Of a DNA stretch of 32,000 bases, positions 621 through 24,633 are shown piece after piece. The position numbers were made by a program, and so were the translations under genes. The stretch is from positions 185 to 32,184 of the forward strand of contig JAIQZR010000192.1 of the NCBI GenBank assembly GCA_021777035.1. The letters run 5' to 3'. The notes under the pieces were generated by a model. It was not told where the DNA came from. It saw only the letters and a list, made by a program, of their open reading frames with translations, and ran no database searches. The stretch comes from Candidatus Scalindua sp. GTDB taxonomy: Bacteria; Planctomycetota; Brocadiia; Brocadiales; Scalinduaceae. Position 1 is the first letter of the stretch. The number at the start of each line of letters is the position of its first letter.

Positions 621-659
621 TTCTTATTTGCCTTTAACACTTCTGGAAAGGATAAAACG

Positions 660-932: not shown

Positions 933-1248
933 GAGATATGAAATTTATTATGCTGATCTTAACCCTACAGTGGGCGGTGAAACAAAAAAAATTCGGCCTG
1001 TTGTTATTATTAGCCAGGATGCCATGAACCGGAATCTGGATACTGTTGTTGTTTGCCCTTTAACCAAAAAACTACATTATCAATGGCGAAGTCGCATGCA
1101 AATTCAGTGCTCTGGTCAGGATGCGGAAATTGCGGTTGATCAGATAAGAACAATTAGCAAAAACAGATTGAAACAAAAAGTTGATAAGCTATCAACGGAA
1201 GAATCTCTACAATTGAGACAACTTATTACAGATATGTATGGAGAATAA
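901..1248 (+). CDS. mazF: MazF/PemK family type II toxin (mRNA interferase)
   Basis: Family-typical N-terminal region YEIYYADLNPTVGGETKKIRPVVIISQDAMN...VVVCPLT and size (about 111-115 aa). It overlaps the upstream antitoxin by 20-32 nt. The start is ATG 901 or ATG 913. Confidence 0.75.
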   Translation: MDWRMNTLAPKRYEIYYADLNPTVGGETKKIRPVVIISQDAMNRNLDTVVVCPLTKKLHYQWRSRMQIQCSGQDAEIAVDQIRTISKNRLKQKVDKLSTEESLQLRQLITDMYGE

Positions 1249-7552: not shown

Positions 7553-8578
7553 ATGCGTGTAGCAATGTATTACAATAATAGTGACATTAGAGTTGAAGAG
7601 ATGCCAACACCGCAGATTGGTCGGGGTGAGATATTACTAAAATCGCTGGCCTGTGGTATCTGTGGCAGCGATGTGATGGAATGGTATCGTATCCACAAAG
7701 CACCACTTGTACTTGGCCATGAAGCGACCGGTGAGATTGTTGAAGTCGGAGATGGTGTTACACGATTCAAAACAGGGGATAGGGTTTTTGTATCACACCA
7801 TGTTCCCTGCAATACATGTCATTATTGTTTAAATGGCCACCACACGGTATGCGACTCCCTACGTAGTACTAATTTTGATCCCGGTGGCTTTGCAGAGTAT
7901 GTACGAGTGCCGGAAATTAATGTAGACAGAGGAGTCTTTGTACTTCCAGATAATATGTCACTGGAAGATGGCACATTTATTGAACCATTGGCCTGTGTGG
8001 TTCGAGGACAAAGAGTAGCACGTATTGAACCCGGCCAAACTGTAGTTATTATCGGCAGTGGTATGTCAGGGCTACTTCACATACTGCTTGCTCGATCACT
8101 CGGAGCCGGAAAAATAATTGCTACAGACATAAGTGAATATCGTATGGAGATGGCGAAAAAGTTTGGAGCTGATTCCGTTATTTCCGCTCATGATGACCTG
8201 CCCTCACACCTGCTCAAATTGAACAGTAACAGGCTTGCCGATCGTGTGATAGTAACAGCCGGAGCAGACTCTGCCTTAGATACCGCTATAAAATCTGTAG
8301 ACCGCGGTGGTACTATCCTGTTCTTTGCACCTGGCGGCCCGGATACCCATCTTTCCGTACCGTTTAATGATTTTTGGAAAAATTGTTTTACTTTATTGCC
8401 AACATATGGTGCCAGCCCTCTTGACATAGAAGTGGCAATTGAGTTGATTAGTTCTCAGCGCGTTCCAGTACAAGAGATGATTACCCATCGTTTAGGTTTG
8501 GCAGAAACCGAACGAGGATTTGAGTTGGTTACTGAAGCCAAAGAGTCTATAAAAGTAGTTATCGAGCCACACAAATAA
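7553..8578 (+). CDS. Zinc-dependent medium-chain alcohol/polyol dehydrogenase (threonine/sorbitol dehydrogenase-like)
   Basis: Catalytic Zn ligands in CGICGSD and GHEATGEIVEVG. Structural Zn cluster CNTCHYCLNGHHTVC. Rossmann motif IIGSGMSG. Confidence 0.8.
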   Translation: MRVAMYYNNSDIRVEEMPTPQIGRGEILLKSLACGICGSDVMEWYRIHKAPLVLGHEATGEIVEVGDGVTRFKTGDRVFVSHHVPCNTCHYCLNGHHTVCDSLRSTNFDPGGFAEYVRVPEINVDRGVFVLPDNMSLEDGTFIEPLACVVRGQRVARIEPGQTVVIIGSGMSGLLHILLARSLGAGKIIATDISEYRMEMAKKFGADSVISAHDDLPSHLLKLNSNRLADRVIVTAGADSALDTAIKSVDRGGTILFFAPGGPDTHLSVPFNDFWKNCFTLLPTYGASPLDIEVAIELISSQRVPVQEMITHRLGLAETERGFELVTEAKESIKVVIEPHK

Positions 8579-8628
8579 GCATCTTCTAAAAAAAATAAAA
8601 CCTCAAAAGTTTCATTCCGTTAAAACCC

Positions 8629-9453
8629 ATGAAACCCGCTCGTTTAATCGCTGACAAGATAAAGGACAACCTACACACAAATGTAATAGGCCGCGAAGTA
8701 ATTACACTTGAACGTGCCGCTTCGGCAATGGACATTGCAAAAGAGATGCTCAAGGAAGGTGCTGCAGAAGGAACAACAATTTTCGTTGAAGAGCAAACTC
8801 GAGGAAGAGGACGGTCAGGGAGAGAGTGGTACTGCAAGGATGGAAAAGGGTTGTTGCTGACGGTTGTCTTAAAACCAGTAATTCAACCTAAAAAATCGTA
8901 TCTTTTAATGGTTTTTACTGCTGTTGCAATCGTAAAAACGATCAGGGATATGTTCAAATTACCAGTGGAAATCGACTGGCCTAATGACCTTGTAATTAAT
9001 AATAAGAAATTAGGCGGTATAATTGTAGAAACACAAAATAATACCGGACAATCAAAAGACTACATTGTAGGCATTGGTATTAATGTCAATTTAAAAAAGC
9101 ATGAGCTTCCGGGTCACATAGATCAGCCGATAACATCTCTTGCCATTGAAAAAGAAACATTTGTAGACCGTGCCAATTTTGCAAGAGCATTGCTGCAGAA
9201 TCTAGATTCATGGTACTTAATCCTAAAAGATGAACGCCACGAACATATTGTGGAGAAGTGGCAAGAATTCTGCGTGAACATTGGAAGAATGGTCAACGTA
9301 CGTAATGCTAAAAAAGAATTTACGGGAATTTTTCTAGGAATTTCTAATAACGGAGAATTGATACTACAACTCGATAATGGACGCAAAAGAAATTTCAAAG
9401 TTGAACACACTATTATGAATCACCATACATCATCCACTTTTGTATCCTCGTAG
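8629..9453 (+). CDS. birA: Biotin--[acetyl-CoA-carboxylase] ligase (group I, no N-terminal HTH)
   Basis: BPL signature EEQTRGRGRSGREW (GRGRxGRxW), followed by KWPNDL-like IDWPNDLVINNKKLGGII. Confidence 0.8.
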   Translation: MKPARLIADKIKDNLHTNVIGREVITLERAASAMDIAKEMLKEGAAEGTTIFVEEQTRGRGRSGREWYCKDGKGLLLTVVLKPVIQPKKSYLLMVFTAVAIVKTIRDMFKLPVEIDWPNDLVINNKKLGGIIVETQNNTGQSKDYIVGIGINVNLKKHELPGHIDQPITSLAIEKETFVDRANFARALLQNLDSWYLILKDERHEHIVEKWQEFCVNIGRMVNVRNAKKEFTGIFLGISNNGELILQLDNGRKRNFKVEHTIMNHHTSSTFVSS

Positions 9454-9989
9454 TTAATTAGACCCGCATTAAGTTGTTTTTCCACAATTTCCAGCTTTGT
9501 TTCCAATCTATCGATTTGTTTTGTCAAATCTTTATAGACTATGAAACCAAGAATCAGCAATAAAACTGTGTAAACAATTACAAATGTAGTTGCGGGGCTC
9601 TCTTTGTGTGTTGTTTCATGAGGTTTTGCATGATAATCATACGTATCTTTACCCAAAACAACCTTCCGATTTGCCTCTGTTACGTCACCGATCCCAAAAG
9701 CGTCTTCATCCTGTTTATCACTAGATTCTATTACGCTACCAAGCTCCCGGATCTTGTTCCCCTGTAGACTAAGCGTCTCTGATACATCAATAGGTTCGTA
9801 CGCTTTTTCTTCCTGTTTTTCTTCGTACTTTGTACCTGTCTCTTTGTTATCACTTACTGGGTCAAGCGGTTTTTCTGTCTGCACTTCCTGACTATCTATA
9901 TCACCCTTCAGGTTTGCGGTATCTTCTTTTTTGTCATTTTCCTTCAACCACTTAAAAGGATCAGTCCCAAGCACACTTTTCTTTTGCAT
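9420..9989 (-). CDS. Hypothetical acidic, single-pass membrane protein with C-terminal coiled coil; candidate ParA partner
   Basis: The N-terminus is MQKKSVLGTDPFKWL. A long D/E/K-rich segment follows, then one TM helix (TTFVIVYTVLLLILGFIVY) and KQIDRLETKLEIVEKQL. The ATG at 9989 is preceded by AAGGAAAG. It lies directly downstream of the ParA-like gene. Confidence 0.55.
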   Translation of the reverse strand: MQKKSVLGTDPFKWLKENDKKEDTANLKGDIDSQEVQTEKPLDPVSDNKETGTKYEEKQEEKAYEPIDVSETLSLQGNKIRELGSVIESSDKQDEDAFGIGDVTEANRKVVLGKDTYDYHAKPHETTHKESPATTFVIVYTVLLLILGFIVYKDLTKQIDRLETKLEIVEKQLNAGLINYEDTKVDDVW

Positions 9990-10130
9990 AAAGCTTTCCT
10001 TCAGTAACAAACGTCACCAAAATTATACAATTTACAAACTAACAAATACGGCTGGTACAACTCAAGAGTTGTTATTAATATCGCAAGGAACACACGCCTT
10101 TCAATATTAATAATTTATGTGTCCCCCACT

Positions 10131-10898
10131 TTAAATACTTTTCTCTTGAGCAATTATCTCTTTAGTTAGTGCCACATAATCCTGAGCGCCATTAGACTCT
10201 GGAGCGTATACCGTAATTGGCATACCATGGCTTGTTGATTCTGAAAGTTTAATATTTTTTCTTATACAAGTGACAAACACCTTGTCTTCAAAATATTCTT
10301 TAATCTTGTCAAGCACCGCCTGCCCCAACTTTGTCCTGCTATCATACATACAAGCTATTATTCCGGTAATCTCTAACGAACTGTTCAGCCTTTTCTTGAT
10401 AATATCAAAAGTTTGCAACAACTTGCTTACGCCCTGTAACGCAAAGAACTCAGTTTGCACAGGAATGAAAATTTCGTTAGCGACAGTAAGTGCATTCAGG
10501 GTTAGAAGCCCTAGAGAAGGTGGGCAATCGATTAAAACGTAATCATACACATTTAACATCTCACCAAGATAGAACTTAACTATCGTTTCACGCCCCACAG
10601 TGTTAACAAGCTCCACCTCCGCACTTGCAAGATCAATATCAGAAGGAATAAGATCCAGACCACTTATGGCCGTTTTGATTAATACCTCAGAAACGTTCTT
10701 CTTACCGCACATTATCTGATAAATTGATAAATCTTTCCCCTGAGCGTTAACACCGTAATGGATACTTAAATTAGCTTGAGGATCGAGATCTATCAGTAGC
10801 ACCTTTTTACCAAGTGCAGCGAGACATGCTCCAACGTTTGCAGTAGATGTCGTTTTCCCAACCCCGCCTTTTTGATTTATAAACGCAATGCTACGCAA
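10131..10898 (-). CDS. ParA/Soj/MinD-family P-loop ATPase (orphan; no ParB adjacent)
   Basis: Deviant Walker A INQKGGVGKTT, Walker A' LLIDLDPQANLS and Walker B VLIDCPPSLG. TTG start after AGAGGG. Confidence 0.85.
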   Translation of the reverse strand: MRSIAFINQKGGVGKTTSTANVGACLAALGKKVLLIDLDPQANLSIHYGVNAQGKDLSIYQIMCGKKNVSEVLIKTAISGLDLIPSDIDLASAEVELVNTVGRETIVKFYLGEMLNVYDYVLIDCPPSLGLLTLNALTVANEIFIPVQTEFFALQGVSKLLQTFDIIKKRLNSSLEITGIIACMYDSRTKLGQAVLDKIKEYFEDKVFVTCIRKNIKLSESTSHGMPITVYAPESNGAQDYVALTKEIIAQEKSI

Positions 10899-11247
10899 CT
10901 TGACCCTCTTTGATATACGTTTTTTGTGGAATACACAATAGGCTAATAGCGGAAAGTTTATCCATACTAAATATTGTTGTCAAGGATATTTATATAAAAT
11001 GCCCGTTATAATTATTATAAAAATCCTATAGCTTTACATACTTGTGCATACATTGTCAGTCATGCACAATGTCGTTTCAGCACTCTTTTCGCGGACTTAT
11101 TAATCGAAAAAGCATACATTATCAACACTTTCTGCTCTTGACTCTTATTATATTCCGTTTGGAAGGAATATCTATTATTACCAATGCTAATCATCCACAC
11201 AAAAACACAACGCAAATTGTCCTAAGATTGTTGTTGTAAGATTGTTA

Positions 11248-11276
11248 TTGACATATCGATAGAAGTCTGTTATTTT
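11248..11276 (+). promoter_or_regulatory. Candidate promoter for the ACP-led operon
   Basis: TTGACA (11248-11253), 17 nt, TATTTT (11271-11276). A 10-nt direct repeat TAAGATTGTT (11223-11232 and 11237-11246) lies immediately upstream. This would give a leader of about 160 nt. Confidence 0.3.
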
Positions 11277-11442: not shown

Positions 11443-11697
11443 TTGTCTGTAGAAAACTTAGAGAAAGACATCACTGCAATTGTCGCTGAAGTAACCGAAC
11501 TGGAAGAAAATGAAATATGGGAGAAAAGGGATGCCGACTTTTTTAAGGATTTGGAAATTGATTCCTTACTAGCACTAGAAATCCTGGCCCTTATAGAAAA
11601 GAAATTTAAAGTTCAAATTCCGGAAGAAAAACTCGTAGACATTACATCGTTGAATGCAACAATCGAGATGACAAGATCTACACTTGAAGGAAAATAG
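11443..11697 (+). CDS. Acyl carrier protein (cluster-specific ACP paralogue)
   Basis: Phosphopantetheine attachment motif DLEIDSLLALEIL (DSL). Length is about 84 aa from the TTG at 11443, which lies 7 nt after GGAGG (11431-11435). The ORF-track start at 11419 adds 8 aa. Confidence 0.85.
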   Translation: MSVENLEKDITAIVAEVTELEENEIWEKRDADFFKDLEIDSLLALEILALIEKKFKVQIPEEKLVDITSLNATIEMTRSTLEGK

Positions 11698-11797
11698 AAA
11701 AAAGCACGTAACGTTTCTTAGTCATCTACGTGTCTATCCACAAACGATAATAGTGGTCATGCAGTGACTATCTAAATAGAACGAAAGGTTATTATAA

Positions 11798-12247
11798 ATG
11801 TTGAATTTTGAGGAAGTAAGAGAGTTGGTTCCTCAAAAATACCCATTCTTATTTATTGATAAAGTTGTTGAACTTCAAAAAGAAAGCAAAATTGTTTGTT
11901 TAAAAAATATAACGGCTAATGAGTCTTTCTTTACTGGACACTTCCCTGATTTTGCCATAATGCCTGGAGTTCTGATCGTAGAAGCCCTGGCGCAAGCCTC
12001 GATTATCCTCTTCAAAAAGAGCTTCGATACTGAGCAGTACAAAGATAAGATCTTTTTGTTGGCATCTGCTAACGTTCGGTTTTCAAAACCTGTTTTTCCT
12101 GGCGACCAGCTTTTTCTGGAAATTGAAATAGAAAAAGTAATTTCCAGTGCGGCAATAGTTAAGGGTGTGGCCAAAGTGGGAGACAAAGTTGTAACAAAGG
12201 CAACTTTGAGTTTTGGAGTTGCAAATAAAGATACATTAACGGGTTGA
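11798..12247 (+). CDS. fabZ: 3-hydroxyacyl-ACP dehydratase, FabZ family
   Basis: Hot-dog dehydratase signature FFTGHFPDFAIMPGVLIVEALAQ, with the catalytic His and Glu present. Confidence 0.9.
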   Translation: MLNFEEVRELVPQKYPFLFIDKVVELQKESKIVCLKNITANESFFTGHFPDFAIMPGVLIVEALAQASIILFKKSFDTEQYKDKIFLLASANVRFSKPVFPGDQLFLEIEIEKVISSAAIVKGVAKVGDKVVTKATLSFGVANKDTLTG

Positions 12248-12276
12248 AAATATGAATCTTCACAAAGTAAAGAACC

Positions 12277-13497
12277 ATGGATAAAAGAATTGTAATTACC
12301 GGTATGGGTGTAATTTCTCCCATAGGAAACGATAAAGATGCATTTTGGGATGCATTGATTTCCGGCACGTCCGGTGTTTCAGATGTCACATCATTTGACA
12401 CCTCGCCTTTCAAAGTACATAGAGGCTGTTTCGTTAAAGATTTCAATTATGATAATTATAAAAATAATGGTTCAAGTCGTGAAATTGGCAAAGGCTCACA
12501 ATTTGCGGTTGCAGCGGCAAAGCTGGCTATCGAAGACTCTAATATTGGTTTAAAGAATATTGATCCGGAAAGAGCTGGTGTTTCAATTGGAACAACTGCA
12601 GGAGAAATTCAGATTCTGGAAAAAGTGAACTATGTAAGACATGAAAAGGGAGAGGATAGTGTTGACCCTAGCTTGTTCCCTATGCATCCTTGCGTTAATA
12701 TGCCATCTAACATATCTATTGAATTTGGCTTTAAGGGACCAAGCACAATAATACCTACCGCATGTGCGGCTGGAAACTATGCAATCGGCTACGCATGTGA
12801 TTTGATAAAACTAGGAAGAGCCGATATAATGCTAGCCGGTGGATCAGATCCATTTTCTAAAGTAGCGTTTGTCGGTTTTAGTAGGTTAAATGCCATCGCG
12901 CCAGACATTTGTCAACCTTTTGACAAAAACAGAAAAGGCCTGTTAGTTGGCGAAGGCGCAGGAATGTTGGTATTAGAATCCCTCGAAGGTGCACTGGCCA
13001 GAAACGCAAATATTTATGCAGAAATCCTGGGTTACGGCTTGAGTTGTGATGGTTATCACATTACAATCCCGCACCCGGAAGGCAATGGCGTCACTTCTGC
13101 TATGAAAAAAGCCTTGAAAGATGCCAAAATTAGACCAGAAGATGTTCAGTATATGAGTGCGCATGGCACAGGAACAGTTGCCAACGACAAGGCCGAAACC
13201 ATATCGATAAAGAAGATCTTTGGCGAACATGCAAAAAATCTGGCCATAAGCTCTATAAAATCGATGCTTGGTCATACAATGGGAGCTGCCAGCGCCATTG
13301 AAGCAATTGCATGTGCTTTAGCTATAAAAGAAGGTGTTGTGCCGCCAACAATAAACTACGAAACAAAAGACCCTGAGTGCGATTTGGATTTTGTTCCAAA
13401 CGTTAAACGCGAAATGCAAGTCGATATTGCCATGAATAACGCATATGCTTTTGGTGGTAACAATAGTAGTCTCATACTCAAAAAGTTTACTGGTTAA
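12277..13497 (+). CDS. fabF: Beta-ketoacyl-ACP synthase II (FabF-type), catalytic triad intact
   Basis: Active-site Cys in PTACAAGN, and the two His in SAHGTGT and [12 protein letters not shown]. The C-terminus is the typical [14 protein letters not shown]. Confidence 0.9.
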
Positions 13498-13589
13498 GAA
13501 TTCAAAACTAAGATAGTGTTAATTTTCATACCGATATTAGAATTGTTCGGTTTAAAAAAGATTTTAAGTAAAAGAGGTTGGCAATTTAT

Positions 13590-14825
13590 ATGAATGGTCG
13601 TTTGGTCATAACAGGAATAAGCGTCTTATCGTCAATCGGAGAAAACCAGGATGAGTTCTGGACTAATTTGATCAATGGTGTTTCCGGGATAAAAGATATC
13701 ACGCTATTTGACGTCTCAAAATACAAAAGTAAAAAAGCTGGTGAAATATCAGATTTTGATGCTAAAGCATACTTAGGCAAAAAGGGGATTCGTCATATAG
13801 ACAGGACATCGCTATTGGTATCTTCGGCGGCAAAACTTGCCATGGACGATGCTAATATCACCCACGAAACTTACAGTGCCGATGAACTGGGAATAGTAAT
13901 CGGATCAACGTATGGCAGTATTGACAGTATCGGTTCATTCGATCTGGAGGGATTAAAGGAAGGTCCAACTTTCGTAAATCCCATGGATTTTCCAAACACT
14001 GTCCTTAATGCACCAGCAAGTAGGGTATCTATTTTCTGTAATGCTACCGGTTTAAATTCTACAATTTCTACAGGAACTGCCAGTGGATTGGATGCTATCA
14101 TTTATGCCTCTGATTTTTTAAGACTAGGCAGAGGAAAAGCCGTATTAGCCGGTGGAGTCCATGGTTTAACTCCGGACATTTTCTGGGGAGCTTACAGATC
14201 AGGAGTATTGTCGGCCAGCAGTAACGGTGGTATAGAAATATCCTCTCCATTTGATAAAAGACGCAACGGTTTCATAATTGGAGAGGCGTCGGCGTTACTG
14301 GTAATAGAAAGACTTGATGACGCACGGGAAAGAAATGCTAAGATCTATGCCGAGATAAAGGGATACGGAAGCACATTTAACCCTGACAAGATTTCTCATG
14401 ACAACATTGATACCACTCAAGGCGTAAGATGCATATCTACAGCAATGAAAGACGCCGGGATTAATTCTGACGAAGTTTCTTACATATCCGCATGCGCTAA
14501 TTCCAGTGTGACCGGAGACAAAATGGAAGCTAAAATTATTAGAGACTATTTTGGTGATAACGCTGATAATGTCCCTGTAAGTGCTATAAAATCAATGACA
14601 GGAGAATGCCTGGACGCATCAGGGTCACTACAGAGCGTTGCTGGTGTATTGGCAATTAATAATAGTATTATCCCTCCAACAATTAACTATCAGGAAAAAG
14701 ATGAAGAGTGTAATCTGGATTGTGTTCCAAACAATAGCAGAAAATCTGAAGTTAAAAATGTACTTATCAACTCCTTTTCCGATACAGGCAACATTTCTTC
14801 CTTAATCATCTCAAAATATTCATAA
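13590..14825 (+). CDS. Ketosynthase-like protein lacking the Cys-His-His triad (chain-length-factor-like partner)
   Basis: Aligns with the upstream KS along its whole length. PTACAAGN becomes STGTASGL (Cys to Thr). SAHGTGT becomes SACANSS (His to Cys). KSMLGHTMG becomes KSMTGECLD (His to Glu). I prefer the ATG at 13590; the ORF-track TTG is at 13578. Confidence 0.85.
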   Translation: MNGRLVITGISVLSSIGENQDEFWTNLINGVSGIKDITLFDVSKYKSKKAGEISDFDAKAYLGKKGIRHIDRTSLLVSSAAKLAMDDANITHETYSADELGIVIGSTYGSIDSIGSFDLEGLKEGPTFVNPMDFPNTVLNAPASRVSIFCNATGLNSTISTGTASGLDAIIYASDFLRLGRGKAVLAGGVHGLTPDIFWGAYRSGVLSASSNGGIEISSPFDKRRNGFIIGEASALLVIERLDDARERNAKIYAEIKGYGSTFNPDKISHDNIDTTQGVRCISTAMKDAGINSDEVSYISACANSSVTGDKMEAKIIRDYFGDNADNVPVSAIKSMTGECLDASGSLQSVAGVLAINNSIIPPTINYQEKDEECNLDCVPNNSRKSEVKNVLINSFSDTGNISSLIISKYS

Positions 14826-14844
14826 CTTCATAGCGACAGTTTCC

Positions 14845-16278
14845 ATGAGTAATTTCTCCCTGAACAAATCTGAAATAAAATCTAAGTATGACGTAATTGT
14901 ACTGGGAGCTGGGATTGCCGGACTAATCTGCGGAACTTTCCTGGCAAAACAGGGAAAGAAAGTTCTAATTATTGAACAACATAGTATTCCCGGAGGTTAT
15001 TGTACTTCTTTTAAGAGAAAAGGTTTTATCTTTGATGCCGCTGTCCATCATATTGGTGGGTGTGGAAAATGGAGCGTAGTTGGTAGGTGCCTTAAAGAAC
15101 TCGATATAAATATTAATTTTCTACGGCTTGATCCTATGGACAGCATCCATTTTCCTTCATTTTCAGTGGAAATACCTGCTGATATTGACGATTATGTAGA
15201 TCTGTTGAAGGAACGGTTTCCATCAGAAAGTAAAAAAATATCACTTTTCTTTAAAGAATTTATTAGACTATACAGGGCTACATTTAGCACAGATGAGCAT
15301 GAAATGCTTATCAAATACCAAGACCTTACTTATAAAGAAATGCTGGAGAACTTTTTTACTGATGAGCAGCTTAAGATGACTTTATCTGCACAGTGGGGAT
15401 ACATTGGTTCACCACCACATGAGGTTTCGGCTATTGGTATGTGCCAGATGTTAGTAAATTATCTAAAAGACGGAGCCTATTTCCCCGTCGGTGGTACCCA
15501 GAATTTTGCCGATGCAATCACTCAAAAATTTATTGACTATGGCGGCCACATTATGCTATCTTCTAGCGTTGAGACGATTTCCACAGATAGTAATATTATA
15601 AAAGGAGTTACAACGAATAAAGGGGGAGAAATTATGGCTGATACCTTTGTGTCAAATATTGATCCCAAACAAACCTTTTTGCGCTTGTTAGACAAAAATA
15701 CCGTTGATAGCTCATTTCTACACAGGATCGAGAACATGAAAGAAAGCGTTTCATTCTTTTTACTATACCTTGGCCTTGACAATAGAGTAGACTTAAAAAA
15801 GTTAAAAAGGGGTTTTTACCATACATCAAATAACTTAAGCGCTTCTGATAGTGATTGGTTTTATATTTCCGTTCCCACGGAGGTTGATTCAAGCTTGGCA
15901 CCTGATAATAAACAGATAATATCTGTTGTTGTCTCTTCAAGGGATAGTTACGACGACATAGACAATTGGGACACGTACAAAGATAAAATGAAAAAATACA
16001 CATTAAATTACCTGGAAAATTTTGTACCCGATATTCAGAATCATATTGTTGTAACTGACGCTGCCACGCCTAAAACTCTATATCGTTATACACACAACTC
16101 AAAAGGCGCAGCTTATGGCGGGGCCGTTACCGTAGACCAAACATGGTCAAATAGACTTCCACACACAACACCCTTCAAAAATCTTTTTCTAGCGGGGCAC
16201 TGGACAAATCCGGGTCCAGGAATATGTGCGGTTGTATCCTCTGGTTGGAGGGTAGCTAATATGATTTTAAATAATTAG
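14845..16278 (+). CDS. Phytoene-desaturase-like (CrtI/CrtD family) FAD-dependent oxidoreductase
   Basis: N-terminal dinucleotide fold YDVIVLGAGIAGLICGTFLAKQGKKVLIIEQHSIPGGYC. C-terminal FAD motif LFLAGHWTNPGPGICAVVSSG. Confidence 0.85.
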   Translation: MSNFSLNKSEIKSKYDVIVLGAGIAGLICGTFLAKQGKKVLIIEQHSIPGGYCTSFKRKGFIFDAAVHHIGGCGKWSVVGRCLKELDININFLRLDPMDSIHFPSFSVEIPADIDDYVDLLKERFPSESKKISLFFKEFIRLYRATFSTDEHEMLIKYQDLTYKEMLENFFTDEQLKMTLSAQWGYIGSPPHEVSAIGMCQMLVNYLKDGAYFPVGGTQNFADAITQKFIDYGGHIMLSSSVETISTDSNIIKGVTTNKGGEIMADTFVSNIDPKQTFLRLLDKNTVDSSFLHRIENMKESVSFFLLYLGLDNRVDLKKLKRGFYHTSNNLSASDSDWFYISVPTEVDSSLAPDNKQIISVVVSSRDSYDDIDNWDTYKDKMKKYTLNYLENFVPDIQNHIVVTDAATPKTLYRYTHNSKGAAYGGAVTVDQTWSNRLPHTTPFKNLFLAGHWTNPGPGICAVVSSGWRVANMILNN

Positions 16279-16290
16279 GAGGATAACAAT

Positions 16291-17757
16291 ATGAGAAAAA
16301 TGATGCTGATAAACCCACATCCCCCTGGAAGGCATGGCGAGGAGAGCATATCTGTCATAGTCCAAATGCCTTTAAACCTGGCATACATTGCAGCCCTTAC
16401 ACCGGGTGACTGGGAGTTTGATGTAATCGATGAAAATATAGAGCTGGCCCTTGATGATAATGGAGATATTACATTTGAGCCGGTAGATATGGTTTGTATT
16501 ACTTCTGTTACCTATCAAGTGTCTAGAGCTTACAAGATTGCAGAGATCTGCAGAAAAAAAGGCATGACCGTAGTCATGGGTGGCATACACGCTTCAGTAG
16601 TACCTGAAGAAGCTTCAAAATATGTAGATGCAATTTTTATCGGAGAGGCCGAAACACTGTGGCCACAAGTCATTAAAGATTTTGAAAATGGCGAACTCAA
16701 AAAGAGGTACGAAGGCGGGCTGCCAGGCCTGTCAGAAATGAAACATGTATTTCCGAATAGGGAACTCCTGAAAAAGAAATATGATTACAAGTTATCATCA
16801 ATTGTTACAACTAAAGGTTGTCCAAATTACTGCGATTTCTGTAGCGTACCAACCTTTCAAGGGAAAAAGTATAGAGAAAGACCGTATGAAGATGTTCTAG
16901 ACGAGATGGAAGCCACTGACTACAAGGGCCTGATGTTTGCCGAAGATAATTTTTATGGCCATAGTAAGAACTCTGCCAACAGAGCAAAAGCCCTCTTTCG
17001 TGGAATGATAGAAAGGGGCATTAAAAAGGACTGGCTTGGATTTACTGCACTCAATATATCAAAGGATGCAGAGGTACTTGACCTGATGGCGAAAAGTGGA
17101 AATTTTGGTTTTCTCTGCGGAATAGAATCGACAAATGAGGCTGTTCTGGAGAAGATGAATAAAACTACTAATTTAAGGATTGGGGCTGATAATTATTATG
17201 ACAGCGTTCAGAAAATCCATGATCATGGTCTTGTTGTTTGGGGGTCAATTGTCCTTGGAGCAGATGGTGATGATAAAGATTCCTTCAAAAGAATGACAGA
17301 GTTTGTATTGGAAAACAATATAGACGTACTTACCTTTGGTATTAATTGCCCGTTTCCAAAGACTGCGCTTTATGATAGACTGGATTCTGAAAAGAGGATC
17401 TTCAGAAAGAATTATCCTGAAGACTGGAAATATTATGATACTGCGCATGTTGTTCACAGACTAGTTGATATGACATTAGAGGATTTCATTGAAGGTATGC
17501 AATATATGTATGACCACCTATATGCCGCCGACAATCTGAGGCTGAGATTTAGGAAATCACTACAAACTATTGGCAGTACGACTCACGGCAAACGTAATGC
17601 TATGTTCGGCTTCAGGGTTGGTTCTGATTGGATACAGGTATTTGAACAAGTACTGGAAAATCTTCGTCTACTATACGATTCAGGTGATTACTACAAGGAT
17701 TGGTATAAGAGCAGTGCCGTTACTGTACCATCGGGTAAAGGTGTCGCGGTAAGTTAG
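16291..17757 (+). CDS. B12-binding-domain radical SAM enzyme (class B, DUF4070-type C-terminus)
   Basis: N-terminal cobalamin-binding-like domain (MMLINP...VVMGGIHASV...IGEAE). Radical SAM cluster motif GCPNYCDFC (CxxxCxxC). AGGAGG lies 7 nt before the ATG, which is 12 nt after the desaturase stop. Confidence 0.85.
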   Translation: MRKMMLINPHPPGRHGEESISVIVQMPLNLAYIAALTPGDWEFDVIDENIELALDDNGDITFEPVDMVCITSVTYQVSRAYKIAEICRKKGMTVVMGGIHASVVPEEASKYVDAIFIGEAETLWPQVIKDFENGELKKRYEGGLPGLSEMKHVFPNRELLKKKYDYKLSSIVTTKGCPNYCDFCSVPTFQGKKYRERPYEDVLDEMEATDYKGLMFAEDNFYGHSKNSANRAKALFRGMIERGIKKDWLGFTALNISKDAEVLDLMAKSGNFGFLCGIESTNEAVLEKMNKTTNLRIGADNYYDSVQKIHDHGLVVWGSIVLGADGDDKDSFKRMTEFVLENNIDVLTFGINCPFPKTALYDRLDSEKRIFRKNYPEDWKYYDTAHVVHRLVDMTLEDFIEGMQYMYDHLYAADNLRLRFRKSLQTIGSTTHGKRNAMFGFRVGSDWIQVFEQVLENLRLLYDSGDYYKDWYKSSAVTVPSGKGVAVS

Positions 17758-17789: not shown

Positions 17790-17837
17790 GAGTTCCATGT
17801 TACATGTTGTGTGTTTTCTACTTGTAACATGGAACTC
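17790..17837 (+). terminator. Perfect 15-bp stem / 18-nt loop hairpin just after the operon; no U-tract
   Basis: GAGTTCCATGTTACA (17790-17804) pairs with TGTAACATGGAACTC (17823-17837). It begins 33 nt after the radical SAM stop. Confidence 0.35.
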
Positions 17838-17938: not shown

Positions 17939-17966
17939 TTGACAAATGTTATTTTTAGGGTAAAAT
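17939..17966 (+). promoter_or_regulatory. Sigma70-like promoter for the 18052 gene
   Basis: TTGACA (17939-17944), 16 nt, TAAAAT (17961-17966). It lies about 85 nt upstream of an ATG preceded by AAGGAAGGTGG. Confidence 0.4.
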
Positions 17967-18051: not shown

Positions 18052-18543
18052 ATGTTAAATTTTTATAGAAAACTTTTTACCTCTACAGTTGCCCTGTTTG
18101 TACTTGTTGTATTAAACTTTACAAATAGCTCAATTAATAATGTACAAGCAGTAGATTATATAAAAAAACCATCAGAAACTCATCATCAGTCATTCGAACC
18201 TTACGAAAACCCAATTGTTATTCCTGATCCAAAACCAAGAGGTGTTGTTGTAAGAGTCAAAGAGATTACAACATACGAAGTAGTTGTTGACGAGCAAAAG
18301 GTGAATGCAAACAAAGTGACCATGGAGGATCTAGATCTTATAGAGTTGAAAGATAAAAAAGATATCAATTTCCACCAGGTGGACTGTTTTTTTTATGCAA
18401 AGGTAAAGCAGACTCAAACAAAATCAACAGACTATATATCAAGCACTAGATGGAGAGAAGGTGAACAATTCTGGTTGTCAGACGGTGGGAAATACGTTGA
18501 GTGGGAACCGTGGTCTGAATGGTATTCAGGTAATAAATGGTAA
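18052..18543 (+). CDS. Hypothetical secreted protein
   Basis: N-terminal hydrophobic signal (LFTSTVALFVLVVLNFTNSS), a strong SD and its own promoter. I recognise no family. Confidence 0.5.
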   Translation: MLNFYRKLFTSTVALFVLVVLNFTNSSINNVQAVDYIKKPSETHHQSFEPYENPIVIPDPKPRGVVVRVKEITTYEVVVDEQKVNANKVTMEDLDLIELKDKKDINFHQVDCFFYAKVKQTQTKSTDYISSTRWREGEQFWLSDGGKYVEWEPWSEWYSGNKW

Positions 18544-19509: not shown

Positions 19510-20502
19510 TCAAGGTACTTCTATATTATCAAAGATATTTTGTATGACTTTTTCTGCTGTCATTTCTTCTGCCTCTGCTTCATAGGTGATGATCACTCTA
19601 TGACGCAGTACGTCCATTCCTATTGATTTTACATCTTGTGGAGTAACATAGCCCCTGCCTTTGAGAAAAGCATATGCCTTTGACGCAATAGCGAGGTAAA
19701 TAGTCGCCCTGGGCGACGCACCATATTCAATGAATTCGTCTAAATCTAGCCCGTACTTTTGAGGATCTCTGGTGGCAATTACCAAGTCTACTATATAATC
19801 TTTTATCTTATCATCAATATAAATCTGATCGACTACGCCGCGTAAGCGCTTTATATCGCTTGATTTTAAAACAGAATTTACTTTGATACTTGTATCGGTC
19901 AAGGCCATTCTATCCATGATTTCACGTTCTTCACTTTTATTAGGATAATCCACATTAATTTTTAACATGAATCTATCAACCTGTGCTTCCGGTAGAGGAT
20001 AAGTACCTTCTTGTTCAATCGGATTTTGCGTAGCAAGTACCAGGAAAGGGTCTTCAAGTTTAAATGTATCACTGCCAATCGTTACCTGCTTTTCCTGCAT
20101 CGCTTCCAAAAGAGCACTCTGTACCTTTGCGGGTGCCCTATTAATTTCATCAGCAAGAATAATATTTGAGAAAATAGGACCTTTTTTAGTAGTAAACTCT
20201 CCGCTACGAGGATTATATATAAGTGTACCTATCAAGTCTGCCGGCAGAAGATCTGGTGTAAATTGGAGCCGTTGATATTTTACCTGAATTGCTTTTGCCA
20301 GAGTCATTACAGATAATGTCTTTGCTAACCCAGGAACGCCTTCCAACAGGATGTGGCCATTAGCCAGGATGCCAATCAGCAATCTTTCTATGAGATGTTT
20401 TTGTCCTACAATTACTTTCCCCATCTCATTACTCAGATCAGAAAGAACACGGCTCTCTTCCTTGATTACATCAGTTATATTTTTTATATCTTTTGATTCC
20501 AT
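19510..20502 (-). CDS. moxR: MoxR-family AAA+ ATPase
   Basis: Walker A LLEGVPGLAKT. Walker B / sensor region ILADEINRAPAKVQSALLEAMQEKQVTI. Size is typical at about 330 aa. Confidence 0.85.
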   Translation of the reverse strand: MESKDIKNITDVIKEESRVLSDLSNEMGKVIVGQKHLIERLLIGILANGHILLEGVPGLAKTLSVMTLAKAIQVKYQRLQFTPDLLPADLIGTLIYNPRSGEFTTKKGPIFSNIILADEINRAPAKVQSALLEAMQEKQVTIGSDTFKLEDPFLVLATQNPIEQEGTYPLPEAQVDRFMLKINVDYPNKSEEREIMDRMALTDTSIKVNSVLKSSDIKRLRGVVDQIYIDDKIKDYIVDLVIATRDPQKYGLDLDEFIEYGASPRATIYLAIASKAYAFLKGRGYVTPQDVKSIGMDVLRHRVIITYEAEAEEMTAEKVIQNIFDNIEVP

Positions 20503-20719
20503 AATTTATACCTTTTCAGTCGTAGCGACTATAGCCTTTTTTTTGGGAGTTATTCTCTTGCACGTAGACTTTCGCTGGAACTATGGATGTTAGAAGAGAA
20601 CTCTTACTAAAAAAGCGATTAAAAAGCCAGCTAGTTTTTTTCAGATTTGCATAAAACCATAGCCTAGTAGTCGTCTGGAGCAAAAGCCAACGTCTAATAA
20701 TCTTATTAATCAGTATTAG

Positions 20720-23023
20720 TTATTGAATTTCTCTTACTACACTTGCTTCTATCAGATCTTGAATCTTGTTTTTGTTCATTAGGTAGACAAAGTTTGTCTC
20801 TGAACCGGTAACATAATAATCATTACCGGCCTCTTTCCCTACCAGCAATGAAGCCTCGCCATCGTCAAAACTGATAGTGATGTTAAACTGTGGGTTATCA
20901 AACCCATATTTTGATAAATTCTCGTTTGAATACTGTACAATAAACTCACCCATCAGCAATTTCATTGAAGAGATTATTCTATCTGCCAAATTCCCGCTCA
21001 ATAGTATATTTTCTGGCTTGATCATACGCCACATCTGTTCTTCATTTTTCTGAAAAAGCAACTCCTTTTCAGGATGTATTATTTTAATAGACTTTGCATT
21101 CGCACTATCGAAGCTGAACAACGTTCTTGTGACAAGCTCGATACTATAATCCCTGACGTCAGTCCACCCTACCTGAAAAATCATGCCTTCGCCATCCACT
21201 TTCGCATAATAATTAGACTTATCTTTCTCCGGTTCCACTTTATTTCCTATCAGGAGTGTCTTTGTCTTCAATTCTTTTGGCTTTACCAGATCATCTTTCT
21301 GGCTAATTACATGATCACCTTGTGGAGCCACACCAGCATCTTCATATGTTAAAGATGCACTTAACAGGGGATTATCAAATCCATAATCAGCAGAGTTTTC
21401 GGATGAAAGAGCAACTATCTTATCCGCCAACAGAAACGAGAGGTTCCATACCACTTGATTAATGGAGTCCAGTTCAGCTTGCATTGATACAGGGCTAATC
21501 ATATTCCACTTCGGTCTACGCATAGTAGAATCGTCTGCCGTCTCACATATGAGTGTTTTGCCATCCCTTTTGATAACCATTTTCTGAGCACTTTCCTTAG
21601 GGAATTCCATGACTAACTTGTCTCTGAATGCGAGATAACCTTCCGTGGCAATATCATAGAAATTCTCCGATGGTACCGTATAAACCGCATCTTCTCCGTC
21701 TCGTCTCACGTAGCACAGTCCACCATTTTCATCAGCATTACCTATTAAGAATTTCACAGTTTCACCTTCGCCAATCCTCCTGAAGACTGAAACTTCGATA
21801 GGTGAACCTGCTAATCCATACTTTTCAAAGTTAGTACCGCTATCATCAACATATTGCTGTATCTGCAAATCCTTAATTTTTTCTACAAATTCTCTTACAA
21901 CGTCTCTATCAGCAAGAATCTCTTTTGGCGATTTAATCATCCAATCATATTGTACCGTTTTTTCCATAACAAGTGTCGAATCAGGATATTTTAAATCAAT
22001 TTTTTCTATACCGTAAGTGCCGATTGCATCAAACCTCAAGAGCTGCTTGTCACGCAAATCATTTAATTCCAGATCCAGATCGCGAAGAAACATATCCTGT
22101 ACAAAGAAAATTGAACTTTCTCCGTCAAGCTTTGCATAAATTTTTTCATCCAGGCTGTGTCCCAAATGGATAGTTTGCACATCGTTTGCAGTACCAATGC
22201 TGAGAGTAAACACGGGCTTATCCAGTCCGTAGTTGATAATATCTTCTTCGCTATCGGACACAAAATCTTCTTTAGCGATCTTCAGGTTTTTCAATTCATT
22301 GAGCATATCATTGATTCTCTCAGTATCAGCACGGTCTGAAAGCGGTTGTGTTATCCACCAGAGTTGCTCGGCCTTCGAACACACCACAGAATCATTCGAC
22401 TCTCTCTCAAGCCGAACCCTCTCTACCGAATGTTTATCAAACTCAAAAGCCCATTTACTTCTTAAATCATTGATATCTTTGTCTATTTTCTCCAGGAATT
22501 TAGCGTCAACGACAGAAACATCCTTGTCGTCACCCACTGTTATATATACCGTGTCTTGTCCTGCAGCCAGCTTGTCTCCGATATTGACGGTATACCTGGC
22601 AACATCTCCAGATGTTCCGCCAACCATTGAACCCTTTTTCAACCAGAGGCTAATGGTAATAGCTGGAGTTTCAAGACCATACTCTTTCAAACTGAAATTT
22701 GTAGTCTCACTTTTTTCAACAATACCTATTTTTCTCAGAAACTCAAATTGTGAGAGAATTTCAGCCACTTCAGCTTTGTCAGCTCTTAACTGTAGCGGTT
22801 CCAACATCCGCCATGTTTCATTATCAGTGCTCTCAAGGACAATATTAGTATTCCCCTTTTTCATTTCTATTTTATTAATCTGGCCTGGTTTATAATCTGG
22901 CAGTGCCATTTGTTGTCTCTGTACCCACACATCTGTTCTATATTGCTTTCTGTCATATAGAAATATGTATGCCGCACCAATGCCTGCTACTATTAAGAGT
23001 ATTATTGTAGTTTTAAACTTCAT
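20720..23023 (-). CDS. DUF4340-domain protein (accessory component of GldG-type ABC systems)
   Basis: N-terminal TM anchor. Five repeated modules each carry a YG(L/F)(D/E)xP motif: KEYGLETP, INYGLDKP, EKYGLAGSP, ADYGFDNP, SKYGFDNP. It lies directly downstream of the GldG-like gene. Confidence 0.7.
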   Translation of the reverse strand: MKFKTTIILLIVAGIGAAYIFLYDRKQYRTDVWVQRQQMALPDYKPGQINKIEMKKGNTNIVLESTDNETWRMLEPLQLRADKAEVAEILSQFEFLRKIGIVEKSETTNFSLKEYGLETPAITISLWLKKGSMVGGTSGDVARYTVNIGDKLAAGQDTVYITVGDDKDVSVVDAKFLEKIDKDINDLRSKWAFEFDKHSVERVRLERESNDSVVCSKAEQLWWITQPLSDRADTERINDMLNELKNLKIAKEDFVSDSEEDIINYGLDKPVFTLSIGTANDVQTIHLGHSLDEKIYAKLDGESSIFFVQDMFLRDLDLELNDLRDKQLLRFDAIGTYGIEKIDLKYPDSTLVMEKTVQYDWMIKSPKEILADRDVVREFVEKIKDLQIQQYVDDSGTNFEKYGLAGSPIEVSVFRRIGEGETVKFLIGNADENGGLCYVRRDGEDAVYTVPSENFYDIATEGYLAFRDKLVMEFPKESAQKMVIKRDGKTLICETADDSTMRRPKWNMISPVSMQAELDSINQVVWNLSFLLADKIVALSSENSADYGFDNPLLSASLTYEDAGVAPQGDHVISQKDDLVKPKELKTKTLLIGNKVEPEKDKSNYYAKVDGEGMIFQVGWTDVRDYSIELVTRTLFSFDSANAKSIKIIHPEKELLFQKNEEQMWRMIKPENILLSGNLADRIISSMKLLMGEFIVQYSNENLSKYGFDNPQFNITISFDDGEASLLVGKEAGNDYYVTGSETNFVYLMNKNKIQDLIEASVVREIQ

Positions 23024-23046
23024 AATTTAATTAAAGCCTCCGATTA

Positions 23047-24633
23047 TTATCTTCTTCTTCTCCACCAGACGAAGCCGCCAATTATTATTCCAATAGAAGG
23101 TAGTCCTGCAATAGACAACCAAAATATTGCGGCTAGTTGTCCAGGTCTGACAATAGCCCTTCTGACATCAGGAGCCTTTGCTGATATCCCTAACTCCTTT
23201 TCCCTCCTAGCCAGCCAGCTTATCGCATTTAAGACAAGATCCTGATTACCCGGATTATCAGAAAATGCGTTTGCGGCAAAATCTGTATCACCAAAGATAA
23301 CAACACGTGGCCCCTTTTTACCAATATCTGCAAACGCCTGCGTAGCATGTGGAGGTGCAGTAGGATTTGGCTTCGCTTCTCTTAACTCCGATGCCACTGC
23401 TAATATAATCGGAGAGCTGATGTCCGAATCCTCATCATATTTTGGTCTTTTTTTACCAACTATCTCAGTTTCACCCCAACTTTGATCAGGGGCCTGTACA
23501 ATCCCTACTGCAGAAAATGCCATTGCATCACTCAATGGGACAATACTAAGTGCGCTTGAACCATAGAAAACAGACGTCAGCTTTTTGATGTCGTTTGTGA
23601 TTTCGTGGTCTAAGTACTTATCATCACTTATATATACCTCAACAACTGTCTGCATACCAAAAAGCGGCATATTCACTTTGTTGTATACAACCGCATCATC
23701 CCTGACCACTACGCCATACTCTCCTAGCAATGCACTTAAGCCGGATGATTTATTCACACCTACGGCAGGCTCCAGCATTACGATTAACTTGCCGTTTTTA
23801 AGTTCACCCTTATCATTTATCAACCTTGCTGAAGTCCCTACATAGTCGCGGATGTAGTTTGTCTCTTGTGTTGAGAAATTCTTTGTTGGTCCTGCGATGA
23901 AGAGTATGTCGCAATTTTCAGGAACTCTCTTCTGTTTTAGCAAATCAAGAGGCAGGACGTTGTAATTAGCACGCTTGATAGCACTTGCCAGATTTCCAAT
24001 CCCTGCTCGCTCAAAGTCTCCGTAATCTCTCTCTCCATGTCCTTTGGTAAAGTACACGTTTGTCTGTTTTTCTCGTGTTACATTTAAGACGGCAGACGTG
24101 AAGATCTCTTCGCCCTTGAATTTAAAAGGAAATTCTCTTTCAATTACTTCAGATTGCAGTACATGCTTACTCTTATCTCCACAAGTGAAAATTATGGAGT
24201 TTATTTGCAATTGCTCCAGATCCATCTTGAGCTTCTCTGCAAGCTCAGTTATTTTTGTACGATCGGTCAAAGGGTTCAGAAGAGTAACCGTTATTTTATC
24301 TGATAAATACTTGTATTCCTCTAGTATGTCTATAACCTGCCCGTAAAAACGGTAGTCCTGTTTTTTTACCAGAAGTGAAGTAATAAAAACGGGTTGATCT
24401 AGATTTTTCAGAATTTTCTTTGTTTTGGCAGTTAATGAGTATTTTCCCGACGCAGTAAAGTCGCAACGATAATAATGCCTATCGTTAATGTAGCTGACAA
24501 ATACAAAGATGGCTACTGCGATAAGTATCATAAAGATTACATTAGCCCCGATCAGGGTTTTCTTTTTTCTTATATCTTGTGGATTCTCTGATGTTGTTAC
24601 TTCTTTATTATTCAATGACTTTCCTACCTCCAC
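23047..24633 (-). CDS. GldG-like ABC-transporter auxiliary protein (ABC_transp_aux)
   Basis: TM helices at both ends (C-terminal LAAIFWLSIAGLPSIGIIIGGFVWWRRRR) flank a large extracytoplasmic domain. It follows and overlaps the ABC-2 permease. Confidence 0.7.
   Translation of the reverse strand: MEVGKSLNNKEVTTSENPQDIRKKKTLIGANVIFMILIAVAIFVFVSYINDRHYYRCDFTASGKYSLTAKTKKILKNLDQPVFITSLLVKKQDYRFYGQVIDILEEYKYLSDKITVTLLNPLTDRTKITELAEKLKMDLEQLQINSIIFTCGDKSKHVLQSEVIEREFPFKFKGEEIFTSAVLNVTREKQTNVYFTKGHGERDYGDFERAGIGNLASAIKRANYNVLPLDLLKQKRVPENCDILFIAGPTKNFSTQETNYIRDYVGTSARLINDKGELKNGKLIVMLEPAVGVNKSSGLSALLGEYGVVVRDDAVVYNKVNMPLFGMQTVVEVYISDDKYLDHEITNDIKKLTSVFYGSSALSIVPLSDAMAFSAVGIVQAPDQSWGETEIVGKKRPKYDEDSDISSPIILAVASELREAKPNPTAPPHATQAFADIGKKGPRVVIFGDTDFAANAFSDNPGNQDLVLNAISWLARREKELGISAKAPDVRRAIVRPGQLAAIFWLSIAGLPSIGIIIGGFVWWRRRR

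Follow-up and report, generated by a model that had tools for sequence, protein, structure and literature searches.

The fused cyclobutane rings of ladderane lipids are a long-standing open problem, and 'Cluster I' of the anaerobic ammonium-oxidising (anammox) bacteria, kuste3603-3608 of Kuenenia stuttgartiensis, has been the main suspect of the field since 2009 without being proven. A stretch of 32,000 nt from Candidatus Scalindua sp. (assembly GCA_021777035.1, contig JAIQZR010000192.1, positions 185-32,184, forward strand), referred to below as the window, carries at positions 11443-17757 a six-gene operon that is compared here with Cluster I and related systems. The comparison is based on open reading frame (ORF) calls, Pfam, NCBIfam, PDB sequence matches, alignments, promoter and terminator scans, a fold search and the literature.

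Rattray et al. 2009 listed the cluster as one of four candidates and singled out kuste3606, a non-canonical FabF, and kuste3607, a phytoene-dehydrogenase homolog (PDH). The B12 radical S-adenosylmethionine (SAM) enzyme (rSAM) emphasised in that study is kuste2803 of another cluster, not kuste3608. An earlier annotation of the window from its letters, here called the original prediction, had described the gene order itself as singled out in 2009; it was right about the candidate cluster and wrong about what had been singled out. Cluster I ranks second in expression among the candidate clusters in Kuenenia (PMC4790861). Its dehydratase, amxFabZ, dehydrates substrates bound to the cluster's own acyl carrier protein (ACP), amxACP, and not those bound to canonical ACP, with a strong preference for C6-C8 (Dietl et al. 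2023, PMC10139942). The two FabF homologs form a heterodimer resembling a ketosynthase (KS) and its chain-length factor (CLF), which decarboxylates malonyl-ACP and prefers short chains; the closest structural homolog of its KS subunit is the ishigamide polyene KS (bioRxiv 10.64898/2026.05.19.726425). The original prediction's statement that the enzymology is undescribed therefore applies to the flavoenzyme and the rSAM, not to amxACP, amxFabZ and the KS/CLF pair. The cluster has been called 'encountered exclusively' in and 'unique to' ladderane producers (PMC10139942; bioRxiv 10.64898/2026.05.19.726425).

A Cluster I operon in Candidatus Scalindua

As judged from domains, PDB matches, gene order and signature residues, the operon is almost certainly the Scalindua-type ortholog of Cluster I. 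Six ORFs, all on the + strand, encode in order an ACP, a FabZ, a KS, a dead KS, a CrtI-family flavoenzyme and an rSAM with a B12-binding domain. Pfam and NCBIfam returned PP-binding, FabA/FabZ, ketoacyl-synt N and C (twice), Amino_oxidase/crtI_fam, and B12-binding with Radical_SAM, which confirms the co-directional genes and the domains given in the original prediction. The gaps between the genes, predicted at 12-100 nt, measure 100, 29, 92, 19 and 12 nt. Genes and order correspond to kuste3603-3608 in table 2 of Javidpour et al. (PMC4790861), and the same order was drawn as 'Cluster I' by Granatino et al. (bioRxiv 10.64898/2026.05.19.726425).

The dedicated carrier amxACP (11443..11697, +; 84 aa) matches PF00550 (E 1.3e-13) and the solved amxACP 7qv0_D (E 1.1e-44), as well as 7auf and 9s5i_E. 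It has a DSL phosphopantetheine site and, in the alignment with E. coli AcpP, the two-residue insertion 'WEKR'. Its start codon, taken earlier as ATG, is most likely the TTG at 11443, which has a GGGAGG Shine-Dalgarno sequence 6 nt upstream and is preferred over TTG 11419 by homolog alignments. The 3-hydroxyacyl-ACP dehydratase amxFabZ (11798..12247, +) scores 154.9 bits on TIGR01750 and matches PDB 8ayi_A (E 4.8e-84) and 7qv0_A. In the numbering of PMC10139942 it carries His48, Glu62 and a bulky Ile69 in place of the canonical Gly, and a bulky residue at this Gly position is a mark of amxFabZ (Dietl et al. 2023, PMC10139942).

The two FabF-like proteins score 476 and 350 bits on TIGR03150. 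The active KS, amxFabF2 (12277..13497, +), matches PDB 9s5h_B (E 1.2e-203, 680 bits) and the ishigamide KS 6kxd_A (349 bits). The inactive, CLF-like homolog, amxFabFmut (13590..14825, +), matches 9s5h_C (E 2e-174, 583 bits); its start is ATG 13590, and the alternative TTG 13578 would shorten the third gap to 80 nt. At the aligned triad positions the first KS reads Cys/His/Lys/His/Phe and the second Thr/Cys/Lys/Glu/Asp (Cys to Thr, His to Cys, His to Glu and Phe to Asp), so that Thr/Cys/Glu replace Cys/His/His and the predicted 'dead KS' holds. Adjacent active and dead homologs are the arrangement of a type II polyketide synthase (PKS) KS/CLF pair, and the heterodimer is known from the orthologs. 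The CLF of aromatic type II PKSs carries Gln at the KS cysteine position. Assignment of amxFabFmut to that type was rejected: it has Thr at this position, its relatives have Val, Ala, Leu or Glu, and Thr or Val stands in Cluster I where the aromatic CLFs carry Gln. Thr is the state of Scalindua brodae, Val that of other genera (bioRxiv 10.64898/2026.05.19.726425).

The fifth gene encodes the FAD flavoenzyme PDH (14845..16278, +), with an N-terminal GxGxxG motif and a match to PF01593 (E 2.7e-25). Its nearest solved structure is CrtI 4dgk (94 bits), and it scores 150 bits on the carotenoid isomerase model TIGR02730. Membership in the CrtI phytoene desaturase family TIGR02734 was rejected, the score of 165 bits being below the cut-off of 238, and the Kuenenia ortholog fails to replace CrtI (PMC4790861). 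From its sequence, which does not give the direction of the chemistry, the protein would be a CrtI-family desaturase, isomerase or saturase.

The sixth gene (16291..17757, +) encodes a putative class B rSAM, as indicated by an N-terminal B12-binding domain (PF02310, 39 bits, cut-off 32.1) ahead of a CxxxCxxC radical SAM core (PF04055, 57.7 bits) with the invariant C177-x3-C181-x2-C184; PF13282 was also matched, and the C-terminus is DUF4070. On NCBIfam it scores 75-86 bits on TIGR04072, PhpK, HpnJ, BchE and HpnR, all far under the cut-offs. For TIGR04072 (rSAM_ladder_B12) the score is 86.3 bits against a cut-off of 360, so membership was rejected; the kuste2803-type paralog likewise reaches only 84.7 bits. 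The AlphaFold2 model (mean predicted local distance difference test score 81) is closest in fold to AprD4 (template modelling score, TM, 0.65), followed by MgmA, TsrM, MiaB, TokK, CysS and OxsB. By sequence the nearest solved relative is the methylase MgmA (9ccb, E 2.6e-14).

Identity of the operon proteins to their anammox orthologs ranges from 59 to 100%. The flavoenzyme has one fully identical NCBI counterpart (100%), and its identity is 84-90% to proteins labelled Candidatus Scalindua sp., S. rubra, S. japonica and S. arabica and 59-63% to Brocadia-type proteins. The best 120 matches of the homolog search with the flavoenzyme are all anammox and carry no information on other lineages. The rSAM shares a 90% cluster with proteins from Scalindua and Scalinduaceae and is 78-80% identical to Kuenenia/Brocadia proteins (78% to that of K. 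stuttgartiensis). Of the anammox-like loci, 33 retain the six-gene order (31 from a metagenome scan, together with L003 and L086); counted by script, the complete order occurs in 43 loci, of which 10 belong to the high-GC group described below. A scan of genome contigs with a generic radical SAM motif returned at least 4 close loci and at least 76 distant rSAMs (27-37% identity, without the gene order), and is not usable as a phylogenetic profile. Compared with Cluster I of K. stuttgartiensis and its orthologs in Scalindua brodae and Brocadia fulgida, the window has the same six genes, order and signature residues: an amxACP-type carrier, the amxFabZ residues, one intact and one fully replaced KS triad. 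There is no difference of substance from other Cluster I members, the dead-KS change of Cys to Thr being a Scalindua variant. The cluster was already known, and the window copy, in itself ordinary, is an ortholog of a famous cluster that is still unsolved.

A self-sufficient type II fatty acid synthase (FAS) needs FabD, FabG, an enoyl reductase and a release enzyme. Domain searches of the window proteins found no FabG, FabI, FabD or thioesterase in the operon or in the rest of the 32-kb window, in agreement with the prediction that the operon is no such synthase. The operon resembles the ishigamide (Iga10-16) and aryl polyene/flexirubin (Ape/Flx) systems, which also have a free-standing ACP, a KS with a dead CLF and a FabZ-like dehydratase (DH), together with a ketoreductase, and no enoyl reductase; the DH homologs match ApeI/ApeP-like Pfam families. 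Unlike those systems, Cluster I has no aryl or amide starter or tailoring genes, and it couples a CrtI-family flavoenzyme to a B12-domain rSAM, both of which they lack.

The rSAM shares its layout, an N-terminal Rossmann B12-type domain and a radical SAM barrel, with BchE, OxsB, HpnJ and AprD4 (TM 0.55-0.65; BchE 78 bits, HpnJ 82 bits), but identity to these is 13-20% and no family cut-off is reached. The literature places 'ladderane synthase' among these ring-forming class B enzymes. A more distant likeness is to the TIGR04072-type clusters of Desulfobacterota (Desulfotalea, Geobacter) and the antiSMASH 'ladderane' biosynthetic gene clusters, in which an rSAM lies beside KS pairs and sometimes a CrtI-like gene (L010, L013, L021); these loci are 25-37% identical to the window and do not have the six-gene order. 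Synteny with D. psychrophila, which makes no ladderanes, was reported by Rattray 2009.

Occurrence outside anammox bacteria and the second module

A new result is that the complete Cluster I order, with its signature residues, is also present in at least seven distinct contigs of high GC content (50-72%). They were found via the genomic context of radical SAM relatives 55-60% identical to the window rSAM, and their taxonomic labels (Acidobacteria/Vicinamibacteria, Planctomycetota) are those of the submitters. Anammox loci in the data set have 34-53% GC. Since at least seven distinct operons at 50-72% GC lie within coherent flanks, they are not stray anammox DNA.

In loci of 60% GC (L081-83, L092), with a protein named for Acidobacteria bacterium 13_1_40CM_2_60_7, the six genes are followed by FabG and a divergent FabH and lie beside pectin-lyase, GH28 and apiosidase-type genes; one neighbouring gene recurs in a second Acidobacteria metagenome-assembled genome (MAG). 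Metagenome contigs of 55-58% GC (L094, L098) have the same layout, and a 120-kb contig (JGI 3300056388) has FabH, the six genes and FabG between flanks with TonB-dependent receptors. Planctomycetota bacterium GCA_008501825.1 (57% GC; L084/85) carries the six genes, a second rSAM, a KS, a truncated KS-like gene and FabG. A Planctomycetota MAG of 70% GC (L172, on the same contig as L087) has the six genes and FabG, with a MIase-like gene, ferredoxin and FabH nearby. A metagenome contig of 69% GC (L100) has the six genes and a second rSAM, and upstream on the opposite strand two rSAM-like genes and a crotonase. At 50% GC, the metagenome contig L140 has the six genes without additions, and some 18 kb away on the same contig is a KS2-CLF2-rSAM2-rSAM group (L128); Pfam found no taxonomic or anammox marker in the flanks of L140/L128. 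The largest version is an operon of about 18 genes on a 153-kb contig of 66% GC (L089; JGI 3300082212), with FGE-like and cyclase-like genes between the DH and the KS and, after the six genes, a second rSAM, a MIase-like gene, a second KS/CLF, ferredoxin, crotonase, FabG, two more KS and FabH. FabG and FabH are usually added to the six genes in the high-GC operons. The original prediction gave as grounds for its refutation that the gene order is common in organisms that make no ladderanes. This applies in part: the order does occur outside the known producers, in these contigs, but is rare.

Identity between high-GC and window proteins is 49-58% for the ACP, 45-48% for the DH, 53-57% for the KS, 35-37% for the CLF, 39-43% for PDH and 56-57% for the rSAM. 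In the alignments the high-GC loci share the ACP insertion (ELWEKR or ELWQKR), have the FabZ Gly replaced by Ile or Leu, and keep the KS triad intact. In their dead KS an acidic residue takes the place of the second His, and Cys that of the first in two of the three loci aligned. A search with the acidobacterial flavoenzyme gave 36 sequence clusters at 57-100% identity, labelled Acidobacteria, Vicinamibacteria and (twice) Planctomycetota, then a gap below 57% and anammox proteins at 47% or less. From this gap the anammox and high-GC groups, though well set apart, are each other's closest relatives. A rough neighbour-joining tree of the rSAM proteins resolves separate anammox Cluster I, stand-alone and kuste2803 clades and two non-anammox clades.

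Several of these operons are joined to a module of the kuste2802-2805 type (B12 radical SAM, FabF and non-canonical FabB). It is paralogous to Cluster I (rSAM 51%, KS 46-48%, dead KS 34-41% identity), has no ACP, FabZ or CrtI-like gene, and is absent from the window. In Brocadia-like and Subterrananammoxibius genomes (L002, L004) the kuste2803-2805-type module occupies a separate locus, and its 90% cluster contains CAJ73554, a neighbour of kuste2805 (CAJ73556). In Planctomycetota-type loci it is fused directly downstream of Cluster I; the fusion is found in L084 (5338-15838), L089 (4101-21437) and L099-L101. On a 5.1-Mb contig of 34% GC (L086:3035-18040), whose Cluster I rSAM groups with Candidatus Anammoxibacter, module and Cluster I lie back-to-back; after the module come a FadH/OYE-type flavoenzyme (481 bits on TIGR03997), a crotonase, a FabG that passes the cut-off of TIGR01830 with 318.7 bits, and a MIase-like protein. 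The kuste2803-type module is often followed by a FadH/OYE-type reductase, crotonase, FabG, MIase-like protein and/or ferredoxin. The adjacency and fusion of module and Cluster I suggest that the two anammox clusters act in one pathway. The extended operons add FabG, FabH, crotonase, a FadH/OYE dienoyl-reductase-like enzyme and a MIase-like protein, accessory enzymes of types acting on conjugated or shifting double bonds, and no FabI-type enoyl reductase was found in any extended homologous operon examined. The associated FabG scores 273 bits on the flexirubin FlxB model.

The six-gene unit may belong, as its anammox branch, to an older operon family, FabH / ACP-DH-KS-CLF-PDH-rSAM-FabG, that is not specific to ladderane producers. 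This family is often joined to a second rSAM-KS-CLF module, crotonase, MIase-like protein and ferredoxin, and is carried by soil Acidobacteriota (MAGs labelled Vicinamibacteria) and high-GC Planctomycetota. Acidobacteria are said to make iso-diabolic acid, a membrane-spanning lipid, by an unknown pathway; the idea that the acidobacterial copies are the missing synthase was dropped, as no cultured producer is among 111 PDH relatives.

Further paralogs were noted in these contigs. L086 has a second Cluster-I-type rSAM gene on the - strand (20394-21464), 72% identical to that of the window over 354 aa and about 16 kb from the first. L091:8610-11395 is a lone PDH-rSAM pair after a HEPN/nucleotidyltransferase pair, with an rSAM 68% identical to the window's and no ACP, FabZ or KS upstream. 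A third rSAM paralog clade, clade C (55-58%; L088:3080-4516), is labelled Avalokitesvara, Tripitaka, Hypogeohydataceae and Brocadiales, and in the single locus checked (L088) it stands alone near cbb3-type oxidase genes. A GNAT-like protein of about 398 aa with the C-terminus QGDSDF(F/Y)D recurs beside Planctomycetota-type clusters (L084:19152-20348, L087:5374-6564).

Proposed pathway and the ladderane question

The reading preferred here is that Cluster I encodes a dedicated, ACP-tethered assembly line of the type II PKS kind, insulated from the housekeeping FAS and contributing to ladderane lipids; moderate confidence is placed in this as a joint claim, the ladderane link included. The amxFabF2/amxFabFmut pair would prime itself by decarboxylating malonyl-amxACP and would extend short chains, as seen in orthologs with a preference near C6-C8. 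The 3-keto group would be reduced by a FabG encoded elsewhere in the anammox genome, an enzyme that the non-anammox operons themselves encode. amxFabZ would then dehydrate short 3-hydroxyacyl chains, solely when bound to amxACP, as seen in orthologs. Because no version of the operon has an enoyl reductase, enoyl-amxACP or a short conjugated polyenoyl-amxACP would be the likely substrates of the flavoenzyme and the rSAM. The flavoenzyme might act on these as a desaturase, cis/trans isomerase or saturase, and the B12-domain rSAM would perform radical C-C bond chemistry. The end product in anammox bacteria is probably part of a ladderane lipid, as judged from the expression of the cluster and its distribution, Cluster I having been found in all anammox lineages sampled.

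Several points weigh against this reading. Although all six genes of kuste3603-3608 were transcribed in E. coli and the proteins detected, neither ladderanes nor new fatty acids were formed (PMC4790861), which bears out what the original prediction stated of Javidpour 2016; kuste3607 did not replace CrtI in the same host (PMC4790861). In anammox bacteria no polyunsaturated intermediates have been observed, and isotope labelling is at odds with simple polyene or cyclopropane rearrangement routes (PMC10139942). The cluster papers themselves state that no direct evidence ties any Cluster I protein to ladderanes. The modelled fold of the rSAM points to class B, and does not separate methylation, dehydration and ring formation. 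AprD4 is not known to need cobalamin, and as it is the best fold match, even the B12 dependence of the rSAM is presumptive. The high-GC carriers contradict the description 'unique to ladderane producers', so that the argument from exclusivity is gone and the inference that Cluster I makes the ladder is weakened.

The alternative that survives best is a product other than the ladder: a specialised acyl unit of short or medium chain length (unsaturated, isomerised, cyclised or cross-linked), shared by anammox bacteria with some Acidobacteriota and Planctomycetota, the cyclobutane genes lying elsewhere, for example in kuste3335-3352. The at least seven high-GC operons with the same order and residues come from lineages not known as ladderane producers, the expression of kuste3603-3608 in E. 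coli gave no ladderanes, and the C6-C8 preferred by amxFabZ and the KS/CLF corresponds to the linear part of ladderane fatty acids, not to the ladder. The alternative is nonetheless considered unlikely. In anammox bacteria the cluster is universal and strongly expressed, 36-58% identity between the groups leaves room for a change of product, and the high-GC carriers could make related strained lipids. That these carriers do use the operon to make ladderane-like or other radical-SAM-cyclised lipids is itself rather doubtful. If it were true, a compact operon of 7-8 genes from these organisms, which are more tractable, could serve to solve ladderane biosynthesis.

The route put forward by Rattray 2009 and others, and taken as the obvious logic in the original prediction, starts from a long saturated acyl-ACP of the housekeeping system, which is desaturated to a conjugated polyene by the CrtI-like enzyme and closed by a single rSAM cyclisation cascade. 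Membership of the flavoenzyme in the CrtI family and the adjoining radical SAM gene speak for it, but a one-step cascade has been described as energetically unfavourable (PMC4790861), and the lack of CrtI activity in kuste3607, the failure to detect polyunsaturated fatty acids and the labelling results do not agree with it. The operon's own ACP, KS/CLF and FabZ moreover favour short chains, and amxFabZ ignores canonical ACP. The route is therefore regarded as very improbable. Least probable of all is a role for the rSAM as a plain cobalamin-dependent C-methyltransferase in an operon for methyl-branched fatty acids: 10-methylhexadecanoic acid occurs in anammox bacteria, most class B radical SAM enzymes are methylases, MgmA is the nearest solved relative by sequence and the NCBIfam matches include PhpK, HpnR and TsrM-type methylases (40-82 bits), but these matches are far below the cut-offs, non-methylating BchE, HpnJ and AprD4 score equally, and the dedicated ACP, KS/CLF pair, short-chain FabZ and CrtI-like enzyme are left unexplained.

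The comparative result, which is of some value to specialists, outweighs the window itself, which adds one more ortholog. The high-GC carriers, from soil and aquatic lineages, sharpen the gene set: an enoyl reductase is always missing from it, FabG and FabH are usually included, and a kuste2803-type module is often joined to it. They are also alternative source organisms for reconstitution.

Transcription signals and surrounding genes

The non-coding stretch upstream of the ACP gene is AT-rich (30.5% GC against 39.4% in the window), as predicted, and is 544 bp long rather than 520 bp. A predicted sigma-70-type promoter (11248..11276, +) lies in it, with the -35 box TTGACA at 11248-11253, a 17-nt spacer and the extended -10 element TGTTATTTT at 11268-11276. 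It is among the best-scoring sites of the consensus scan, with 10/12 matches and the TG present. In an alignment of the 400 nt 5' of the ACP gene from 23 anammox loci, TATTGAC(A/T)-N17-TGnTAnnnT is kept in all 23, Scalindua-like and Brocadia/Kuenenia-like alike. The predicted transcript start near 11283 implies a leader of roughly 160 nt, in which no known riboswitch was found, Rfam and tRNA scans of the whole window giving no matches.

About 65 nt 5' of the -35 box lies an AT-rich block, GGAAGGAATATCTATTATTACC (11161..11182, no strand assigned), that is kept in most, not all, of the aligned anammox loci. Its counterpart in Brocadia/Kuenenia-like loci is TAACATAATATATATTATCAGACG, which is partly palindromic, and the block is a possible binding site for a regulator.

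The perfect 15-bp hairpin predicted downstream was confirmed. It is an inverted repeat with an 18-nt loop (17790..17837, +; arms 17790-17804 and 17823-17837, 15/15 complementary) that begins 33 nt past the rSAM stop codon, with dG -25.2 kcal/mol and z = -5.8, none of 200 shuffled sequences being as stable. It has no T-run and was not picked up by the terminator scan; it is probably the end of the transcript. In most other anammox loci a strong hairpin comes directly behind the rSAM gene, and a T-run usually follows it. The window hairpin is unrelated in sequence to those terminators (AAAGGCACA...TGTGCCTTTT) and stands in the same place. The conserved promoter, the short gaps and the hairpin after the last gene support the view that the six genes form a single transcription unit. 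Among loci L105-L158 many, Scalindua-like and Brocadia-like alike, have in common a terminator stem behind the operon, AAAGGCACA...TGTGCCTTT(T).

Hydrazine-synthase genes were not found inside the window; its best protein matches are to Candidatus Scalindua (84-100%). The neighbours of the operon comprise a ParA-like ATPase, BirA, a zinc alcohol dehydrogenase, peptidases, a MazEF pair and a MoxR/DUF4340/ABC-transporter group. Near the start of the window (585-1248) a MazE-like antitoxin gene (weak match) overlaps a PemK/MazF toxin gene, forming a type II toxin-antitoxin pair. Upstream of the operon, the zinc alcohol dehydrogenase and the BirA biotin-protein ligase on the + strand and the ParA/MinD-like ATPase on the - strand lie within 7553-9453 and 10131-10898; the ParA-like gene diverges from the operon, as does that of a 196-aa protein (9420-10010) with no Pfam match. 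Downstream, a near-consensus promoter-like site, TTGACA-16-TAAAAT (17939-17966), precedes an ORF of 163 aa (18052-18543) with a hydrophobic N-terminus and no Pfam match. On the - strand, 19510-26280 holds a co-directional group encoding a MoxR AAA ATPase, a 767-aa DUF4340 protein, ABC_transp_aux (GldG-like), an ABC-2 permease and an ABC ATPase.

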